64,000 bases of DNA from Escherichia coli (GTDB taxonomy: Bacteria; Pseudomonadota; Gammaproteobacteria; Enterobacterales; Enterobacteriaceae), in the NCBI RefSeq assembly GCF_024223415.1, contig NZ_CP100500.1; one strand, written 5' to 3'. Positions 50,981 to 52,087 of this stretch are shown one piece after another. The notes beneath the pieces are model-generated. The model searched no databases. It was not told the DNA's origin and saw nothing but the letters and a program-made list of their open reading frames with translations. The position numbers and the translations under genes are program-made. Numbering within the stretch: position 1 is the first letter of the stretch; every line of letters starts with the position of its first letter.

Positions 50981-52087
50981 TCAGAACTGATAAACCAGAC
51001 CAACAGCGACAATATCGTCGGTTGATACTCCTGTTCTTTCAGTGAATTTATTTTTATCGAGCATATTGATTTTGTAATCTATGTATGTAGACATATTTTT
51101 GTTGAAGTAATAAGAAGCCCCTACTTCAACGAATTTTTCAATATATCCGTCATCATGTTTTTTACTAATATCAGTACTGGATGAAAGGTTTTTTGCTTTA
51201 GAGTGGGTATAAGCAAGAGACGGGCGTAATCCAAAGTCGAACTGGTATTGTGCCACAACAGTGAAATCTTCGGTTTTATTCGCCACTCCTGAAATATTAT
51301 CACCATACGATATTGCACGGGTATTATTTGTTTCACCATAACTGGCAGCCAGGTACAGATTATTTGCGTCATATTTTACCCCGGTGGCCCACTGTTCAGC
51401 TTTTTTCCCTTTACCAAGCTCAGCCTTTTTCTGATTTTTAGTACGATCAGCAGCGCCGTATGCTGCGACAAAACCAAATCCTTCATATTCATAGCTGACA
51501 GAGCCACCTACACCCTCTCCGTTTGAAGTATCTGGTTTATCCTTGCGTTCATTTTTTCCCAGATACTGAATTGCAAAGCTAAGCCCATCGACCAGTCCAA
51601 AAAAGTCAGTGTTGCGGTATGTGGCAACACCGCCTACACGACCAACGAAGAAGTTATCCTTTTGCGCTGCGGTAGGTCCAAACTCCGGGAAGACGTCAGT
51701 GTAGCTTAATGCGTCGTACACCACGCCGTAGTTACGACCATAATCAAGAGAGCCAGCATCTGCAAGCTTCAGACCAGCGTATGCCAGGCGAGTCTTGTTT
51801 CCAGTTTGAGCTCCATCCCCTTCAGGGTTGTTCCCCTGGAAATTATATTCCCACTGACCAAAACCAGTAATATAATTATTTATTTGGGTTTCACCTCTGA
51901 ATCCAAGGCGTGCGTAAGTCTGATCTCCGTTTTGGTCCTTATCAGAAGAAAAATAATGTAAACCAACTGCTTTACCGTATAAATCCACTTTGTTTGCATC
52001 TTTATTGTATATTTATGCTGCATTTGAAGACGTTGCCAGAAATACTGATGCTGCTACAGCAGAAAGTGCCACTGTTAAATTTTTCAT
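50981..52087 (-). pseudogene. OmpC/NmpC-family porin with premature stop at codon 25
   Basis: From ATG at 52087: MKNLTVALSAVAASVFLATSSNAA then TAA (plus 52013-52015); porin continues in frame ([21 protein letters not shown]...) to 50981. Confidence 0.8.

Follow-up and report, generated by a model that had tools for sequence, protein, structure and literature searches.

Accessory porin genes have been described in several lambdoid phages and prophages, among them nmpC on the DLP12 prophage of Escherichia coli K-12 and lc of phage PA-2. In DLP12, the antiterminator gene Q and the lysis genes flank nmpC, which is transcribed from the opposite strand. Phage porins of the nmpC/lc type are dispensable for the phage and were found to be inactivated in some hosts (PMC11677980; PMC2808357). 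An IS5 insertion together with a C-terminal deletion has inactivated the nmpC gene of K-12, which resides on a defective lambdoid prophage (PMC11677980; PMC2808357), and this inactivation has no physiological cost (PMC11677980). Expression of nmpC leads to a higher sensitivity to colicins and phages (PMC11677980).

Here, we analysed a porin gene in a stretch of 64,000 nucleotides of the E. coli contig NZ_CP100500.1 (assembly GCF_024223415.1), which we refer to as the window. Like nmpC and lc, it is an accessory porin gene of a lambdoid element and is located, in the reverse orientation, between Q and the lysis genes. The case repeats the nmpC story in kind, but both the porin lineage, which is OmpF-like, and the type of lesion differ. 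The K-12 gene was lost through IS5 and a C-terminal deletion, whereas the window gene carries a single nonsense substitution at codon 25, and porins of the NmpC/OmpD type known from phages are only about 60% identical to it. Moreover, DLP12 is defective, while the prophage in the window appears to be otherwise intact. Overall, our data make it very probable that this accessory ('moron') porin gene is a true null allele of recent evolutionary origin, in a lambdoid prophage that otherwise looks intact. The lineage of the porin is of slightly greater interest than its null allele.

The porin locus and its prophage

Bases 1-37000 of the window belong to the E. coli chromosome and contain araFGH, otsA, motA, che/tar, flhA, argS and torYZ. 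A lambdoid prophage extends from about 37 kb onward, and those of its genes that are listed below are located on the plus strand with the exception of the porin gene. A related prophage used for comparison was the locus L015 (assembly GCA_053151395.1), which is 99.8% identical to the window over 21 kb. The main features of the prophage are as follows.

After about 37 kb, plus strand: repressor region and KilA-N
47667..49067, plus strand: DnaB gene, preceded by a DnaC-like gene on the same strand
49373..50362, plus strand: DUF968 gene
50380..50802, plus strand: antiterminator Q of 140 aa, convergent with the porin gene (PF06530; annotated as Q family in relatives; 100% identical to the Q of L015)
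50981..52087, minus strand: OmpF-like, prophage-borne porin gene of 368 codons plus stop, broken at codon 25 as seen in the translation
52686..52839, plus strand: two prophage tRNA genes with the anticodons CAT and TTT, between the porin and the lysis genes (ARAGORN, Rfam and alignment)
54185..54718, plus strand: lysozyme gene, intact
54715..55182, plus strand: gene of an Rz-type spanin, intact
After Rz, plus strand: prophage genes for Nu1, gpA, portal and S49 protease

The porin gene is therefore found in the arrangement typical of a moron, between Q and the lysis genes and on the opposite strand. An initial annotation of this DNA, made from the sequence alone, had described this position and had stated that it is frequent in lambdoid prophages. 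Both points hold. The same order of Q, opposite-strand porin and holin-lysin genes is also annotated in four complete E. coli genomes, and the layout is common in isolated lambdoid phages, where Lambda_4C10 shows the same succession of Q, opposite-strand porin and holin.

All other genes common to the window and L015 (27 of 27) are free of stop codons in the window, and no gene other than the porin is broken within the 23 kb of prophage that the window covers. General decay of the prophage was therefore rejected, given that these 27 genes are intact in comparison with L015. One apparent extra stop codon turned out to lie in a spurious 82-aa ORF, which overlaps an intact gene of 83 aa.

Between the porin and the tRNA genes, just 5' of the latter, we noticed a sigma-70-like promoter (TTTACG, 16 nt, TATCAT) on the plus strand, with a terminator-like hairpin about 140 nt further on (window 52478-52667). 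Judged by its consensus match only, this pair could represent PR' and tR', the late promoter and terminator at which Q acts, and the porin gene would then be located between Q and its target. With regard to the host, the chromosomal segment with che/tar, flhA, argS and torYZ (window 12001-37000) reached at best 98.9% identity among 5,426 complete RefSeq E. coli genomes, and the araFGH-otsA-motA segment at best 99.6% in the same set. As judged from these identities, the host appears to belong to a lineage that is poorly represented among complete genomes.

The premature stop codon and its intact counterparts

Within and around the porin gene, the following features were identified.

52093..52098, minus strand: Shine-Dalgarno-like AGAGGA, its 3' end 5 bases before the ATG, read directly as ...CCAGAGGATAAAAAATG
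52019..52087, minus strand: signal peptide of 23 codons, MKNLTVALSAVAASVFLATSSNA, with predicted cleavage before Ala24 (SNA/AE)
52013..52015, minus strand: premature TAA (ochre) at codon 25, where all intact alleles examined carry GAA for Glu, mature residue 2
50981..51988, minus strand: residual ORF of 335 aa without signal peptide, starting with GTG at codon 34, the next in-frame start
50821..50837, minus strand: GC-rich, terminator-like hairpin with a trailing T run, 3' of the porin stop (consensus scan only)

Reading the minus strand from 52087 gives an ATG, 23 more sense codons, the TAA, 343 further sense codons and a TGA at 50983..50981. The premature stop at 52013-52015 that the initial annotation had reported is thus directly visible in the translation, and so is the intact, in-frame remainder of the gene. 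The start at the ATG at 52087 was also assigned correctly, but the signal peptide proposed there, with 24 residues, was too long. Its n, h and c regions can be read in the sequence, with S-N-A at positions -3 to -1 and thus the small residues S and A at -3 and -1. In the alignment, the solved mature OmpF chains, in which PDB residue 1 is the A of AEIYNK, begin at query residue 24. Since the mature N-terminus of OmpF coincides with Ala24, the signal peptide comprises 23 residues and the stop affects mature residue 2; the change of an expected Glu codon from GAA to TAA had been recognized, although it had been placed exactly at the mature start. No convincing minus-strand promoter for the porin emerged from a sigma-70 consensus scan, in which the total number of matches stayed below the shuffle expectation. 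A search of 50300..54300 for structured or small RNAs (Rfam, E<=1) returned nothing beyond the two tRNAs except a single chance match under the threshold.

Comparison with intact prophage porin alleles, which had been recommended as a check, revealed GAA at codon 25 in every intact relative examined, among them the complete genomes of four E. coli strains that carry this gene (alignment and per-base comparison). The base change that turns GAA into TAA is a G-to-T on the coding strand at 52015. Across the gene, the window differs by three bases from Ch1 and by three from ECCNB12-2, and only the G-to-T at 52015 is specific to the window. The porin is 99.7% identical to the intact alleles of 368 aa, and the window protein with Glu restored corresponds exactly to P0121, the commonest allele of a cluster of 91 members, which is present on 551 contigs. 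L015 shows one difference in 4,001 bases (window 49088..53088), located at 52015, and another relative (L009) differs from the window by just one base in addition to 52015. Likewise, among the contigs listed with the DUF968 variant of the window, those that have retained the porin all call an intact gene of 368 residues. The lesion is defined here by direct comparison of alleles and not by a statistical pattern, so that chance is not at issue. The inactivation by a single point mutation, as originally proposed, is well explained by this one GAA-to-TAA change.

A more distant counterpart is the GF60-type porin (WP_089580980.1, cluster P0002), which occupies the same site beside Q and is accompanied by the same tRNA pair as the window porin. 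It is intact, with 367 aa, shares 79% protein and 85% DNA identity with the window porin and has diverged from it in the surface loops.

A difference of a single base from an allele that is otherwise identical, intact and very common might also be a sequencing or assembly error, in which case the strain would truly have GAA and an intact porin. For exact scans we used a 35-mer spanning the stop, TCTTCAAATGCAGCATAAATATACAATAAAGATGC. It gave 0 matches in the GTDB species representatives and 0 matches in the JGI metagenomes, as would be expected for an error. The TAA allele is rare. However, a second assembly, GCA_900482235.1 (contig UDHK01000011.1, hereafter L005), carries the identical TAA. L005 is identical to the window over a tract of 3.2 kb (48964..52201) that includes the stop codon. 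Directly beyond this tract, in 52202..52436, it shows 10 mismatches to the window and matches the upstream region of the GF60-type porin to 100%. The prophage modules flanking this region in L005 are entirely unlike those of the window and include a second porin-Q module, which is of the GF60 type. Furthermore, the change substitutes one base and does not lie in a homopolymer, unlike the usual type of error in modern assemblies. Because an independent assembly with different flanks shows the same TAA, we dismissed a sequencing error as the main explanation and regard it as very improbable, in agreement with the initial annotation, which had named it as the less likely option. The data therefore continue to favour a genuine null allele. 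Judged from these alignments, the TAA allele is present in two assemblies and two prophage mosaics, which need not correspond to two mutational or transfer events.

In the public record, the gene of GCA_900482235.1 is represented by SRA09280.1, a product of 335 residues from the GTG at codon 34 that is found on one contig of this assembly and is called 'outer membrane protein F'. The correct annotation would be that of a pseudogene, and not of a 335-aa outer membrane protein.

Between positions 6000 and 15500 of L005, three modules with Q are crowded together with two porin genes, of which one is the TAA allele and the other a GF60-type allele of 367 aa. Upstream patches of roughly 235 bp appear to have been swapped between the two porin modules. 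This arrangement could have resulted from recombination between prophages or from gene conversion, or it is possibly an assembly artefact induced by the repeats. Recombination between GF60-type and window-type porins is seen in the chimeric products P0012 and P0135 as well as in the upstream patch of L005.

Relationship to OmpF and other porins

For the profile and family tests, the stop codon in the porin protein was replaced by Glu. The Pfam profile Porin_1 (PF00267) covers residues 29-368 and the complete model (1-337 of 337; E=2e-125), and the closest solved relative is the OmpF protein of E. coli (PDB 3hw9, E=9e-151). Chromosomal OmpF proteins share about 67% identity with the window porin over the full length, compared with about 60% for OmpC/NmpC. 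Porins from 42 isolated phages, which are of the NmpC/OmpD type, are likewise at most about 60% identical to it. The initial annotation had assigned the gene to the OmpC/NmpC family; the assignment as a porin is confirmed by these matches, but the subfamily has to be revised. With the NCBIfam OmpF equivalog NF007446, the protein scored 540.4 bits, below the cut-off of 583 bits, and with the OmpC subfamily NF007841, which includes the NmpC/Lc-type phage porins, it scored 460.9 bits, below the cut-off of 484 bits. Since both scores stay under the respective cut-offs, the protein sequence places the window porin in a clade of its own within the general bacterial porins (OmpF/OmpC/PhoE), distinct from OmpF proper and OmpC proper.

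OmpF (PDB 2omf, 3hw9) is nevertheless the closest characterised protein, sharing with the window porin the mature N-terminus, the residues of the constriction zone, the PEFG motif and the terminal Phe. In the alignment to 3hw9 and 1bt9, the OmpF pore residues K16, R42, R82, R132, D113 and E117 are conserved. PEFG in loop 3 is retained, with PEFGP in the window porin in place of PEFGG. Assembly of porins in the outer membrane requires a C-terminal aromatic residue, and the window porin ends with ...VGLVYQF. A Sec signal peptide is followed by the mature N-terminus AE(I/V)YNKD, of which the Glu codon is the TAA in the window. In contrast to OmpF, several surface loops of the window porin have a different length or sequence, and the gene is located in a prophage and not at the ompF locus. 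An intact gene product would be an OmpF-like general-diffusion porin, 16-stranded and trimeric, which the lysogen would produce from the gene's own signals. The frame encoding such an exported protein is interrupted by the TAA at codon 25 in the window, and we infer that the gene belongs to the porin family by descent but is unable to produce the protein.

Sequence comparison indicates that this porin lineage is widespread in E. coli drafts, where it occurs on hundreds of contigs, and that no sequenced isolated phage has a porin more than about 60% identical to it. The function of this OmpF-like lineage of prophage porins appears to be unstudied. Among the intact alleles we observed the differences H44R, D49H, D51H, A140T, D186N and T187I (codons 44, 49, 51, 140, 186 and 187; window 51528-51957). 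These codons, which vary among otherwise near-identical alleles, align with gapped or divergent, loop-like stretches of OmpF. Their distribution hints at a diversifying pressure on exposed loops.

Consequences of the lesion and the question of selection

One G-to-T transversion has converted codon 25 from GAA to TAA in this strain. Ribosomes starting at the ATG at 52087 would then release a peptide of 24 residues, composed of the signal peptide and Ala. About 1 kb of the message downstream would stay untranslated and would probably be open to Rho-dependent termination and decay, and no porin would be expected in the outer membrane. Reinitiation at the GTG at codon 34 may yield a protein, but because both the signal peptide and the ten N-terminal residues of the mature porin would be missing from this product, the established Sec/BAM pathway predicts that it is not exported. 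The loss of the porin is likely to be free of cost to the prophage, since phage growth does not depend on the gene, which is encoded on the other strand than Q and the lysis genes.

Some full-length porin would still be made if the stop were suppressed or read through, for example by a suppressor tRNA. Two phage tRNA genes are indeed present about 600 bp away; in the second, the anticodon loop is unusual (CCTTTAA, C at position 33) and the Rfam score is low, at 31 bits. However, their anticodons are CAU and UUU and not UUA. In Ch1 and GF60 the same tRNA pair occurs beside intact porins with GAA, so that there is no specific link between the pair and the stop. In addition, the second tRNA looks degenerate, with mismatches in the T-stem and the acceptor stem compared with tRNA-Arg(TCT) of ECCNB12-2, and UAA is the stop codon with the most efficient termination in E. 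coli. As these two are the only tRNAs in the window, no suppressor tRNA is encoded within it. Suppression by the adjacent tRNAs was discarded on account of their anticodons and their co-occurrence with intact alleles, and we consider suppression or read-through of the stop in general to be extremely unlikely. The null allele thus remains the preferred explanation.

The second tRNA (52763-52839, plus strand) is called as tRNA-Lys (TTT), with 31 bits in Rfam and C instead of U at position 33. In ECCNB12-2, its slot is occupied by a well-formed tRNA-Arg(TCT). By its sequence, the tRNA of the window, which also occurs in Ch1 and GF60, resembles an argO-like phage tRNA that has decayed or been retargeted.

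Phages, colicins and antibiotics can use porins to enter the cell. Hence, the loss of porins may be selected for, and the null allele could be adaptive and mobile, removing a receptor or an antibiotic route and spreading between prophages by homologous recombination. Several observations are consistent with this possibility. The TAA allele is embedded in an identical tract of 3.2 kb (48964..52201) in two different prophage mosaics. P0129, a product of 352 aa that starts within the signal peptide, represents a separate loss of the porin, and P0012 and P0135 are truncated chimeric porin products of 246/247 aa. In the contig L025 (GCA_044102755.1), a deletion fusing Q to lysozyme has removed the porin, and in ECCNB12-2 an element of the IS5 family has inserted upstream of the porin, about 145 bp from the ATG. 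The increased colicin and phage sensitivity reported upon expression of nmpC (PMC11677980) would also agree with a benefit of porin loss. On the other hand, hundreds of intact alleles stand against a handful of broken ones, which fits an occasional neutral decay of a dispensable gene, and the two genomes with TAA could be kin by descent. We therefore regard an adaptive and mobile null allele as unlikely.

The stronger form of this idea, in which the TAA is a selected loss variant that moved between lambdoid backbones and the prophage porin is a liability that hosts repeatedly discard, seems quite unlikely to us. If it were true, the porin would, for example, act as a phage or colicin receptor or let antibiotics in, and the routes of its disposal seen here would be a nonsense codon, a lesion in the signal peptide, a deletion and an IS5-family insertion upstream.

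For the null allele as such, the importance beyond annotation is small, and the recent inactivation appears to be real but ordinary. The natural pair of GAA and TAA alleles may nevertheless be of use as a nearly isogenic contrast to learn whether the porin helps or harms its host with regard to sensitivity to phages and colicins and to the permeation of antibiotics.

Two of the rearranged relatives show further details. In L025, the positions 4008-4484 encode a product of 158 aa in which Q is joined to a fragment of lysozyme; the deletion took the porin, the tRNAs and the holin region. The element upstream of the porin in ECCNB12-2 (L004, NZ_CP033635.1; 3169-4364) is ISKpn26, a member of the IS5 family, and the matches flanking it overlap by 4 bp (window 52232-52235). 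Its insertion echoes that of IS5 disrupting nmpC in K-12.
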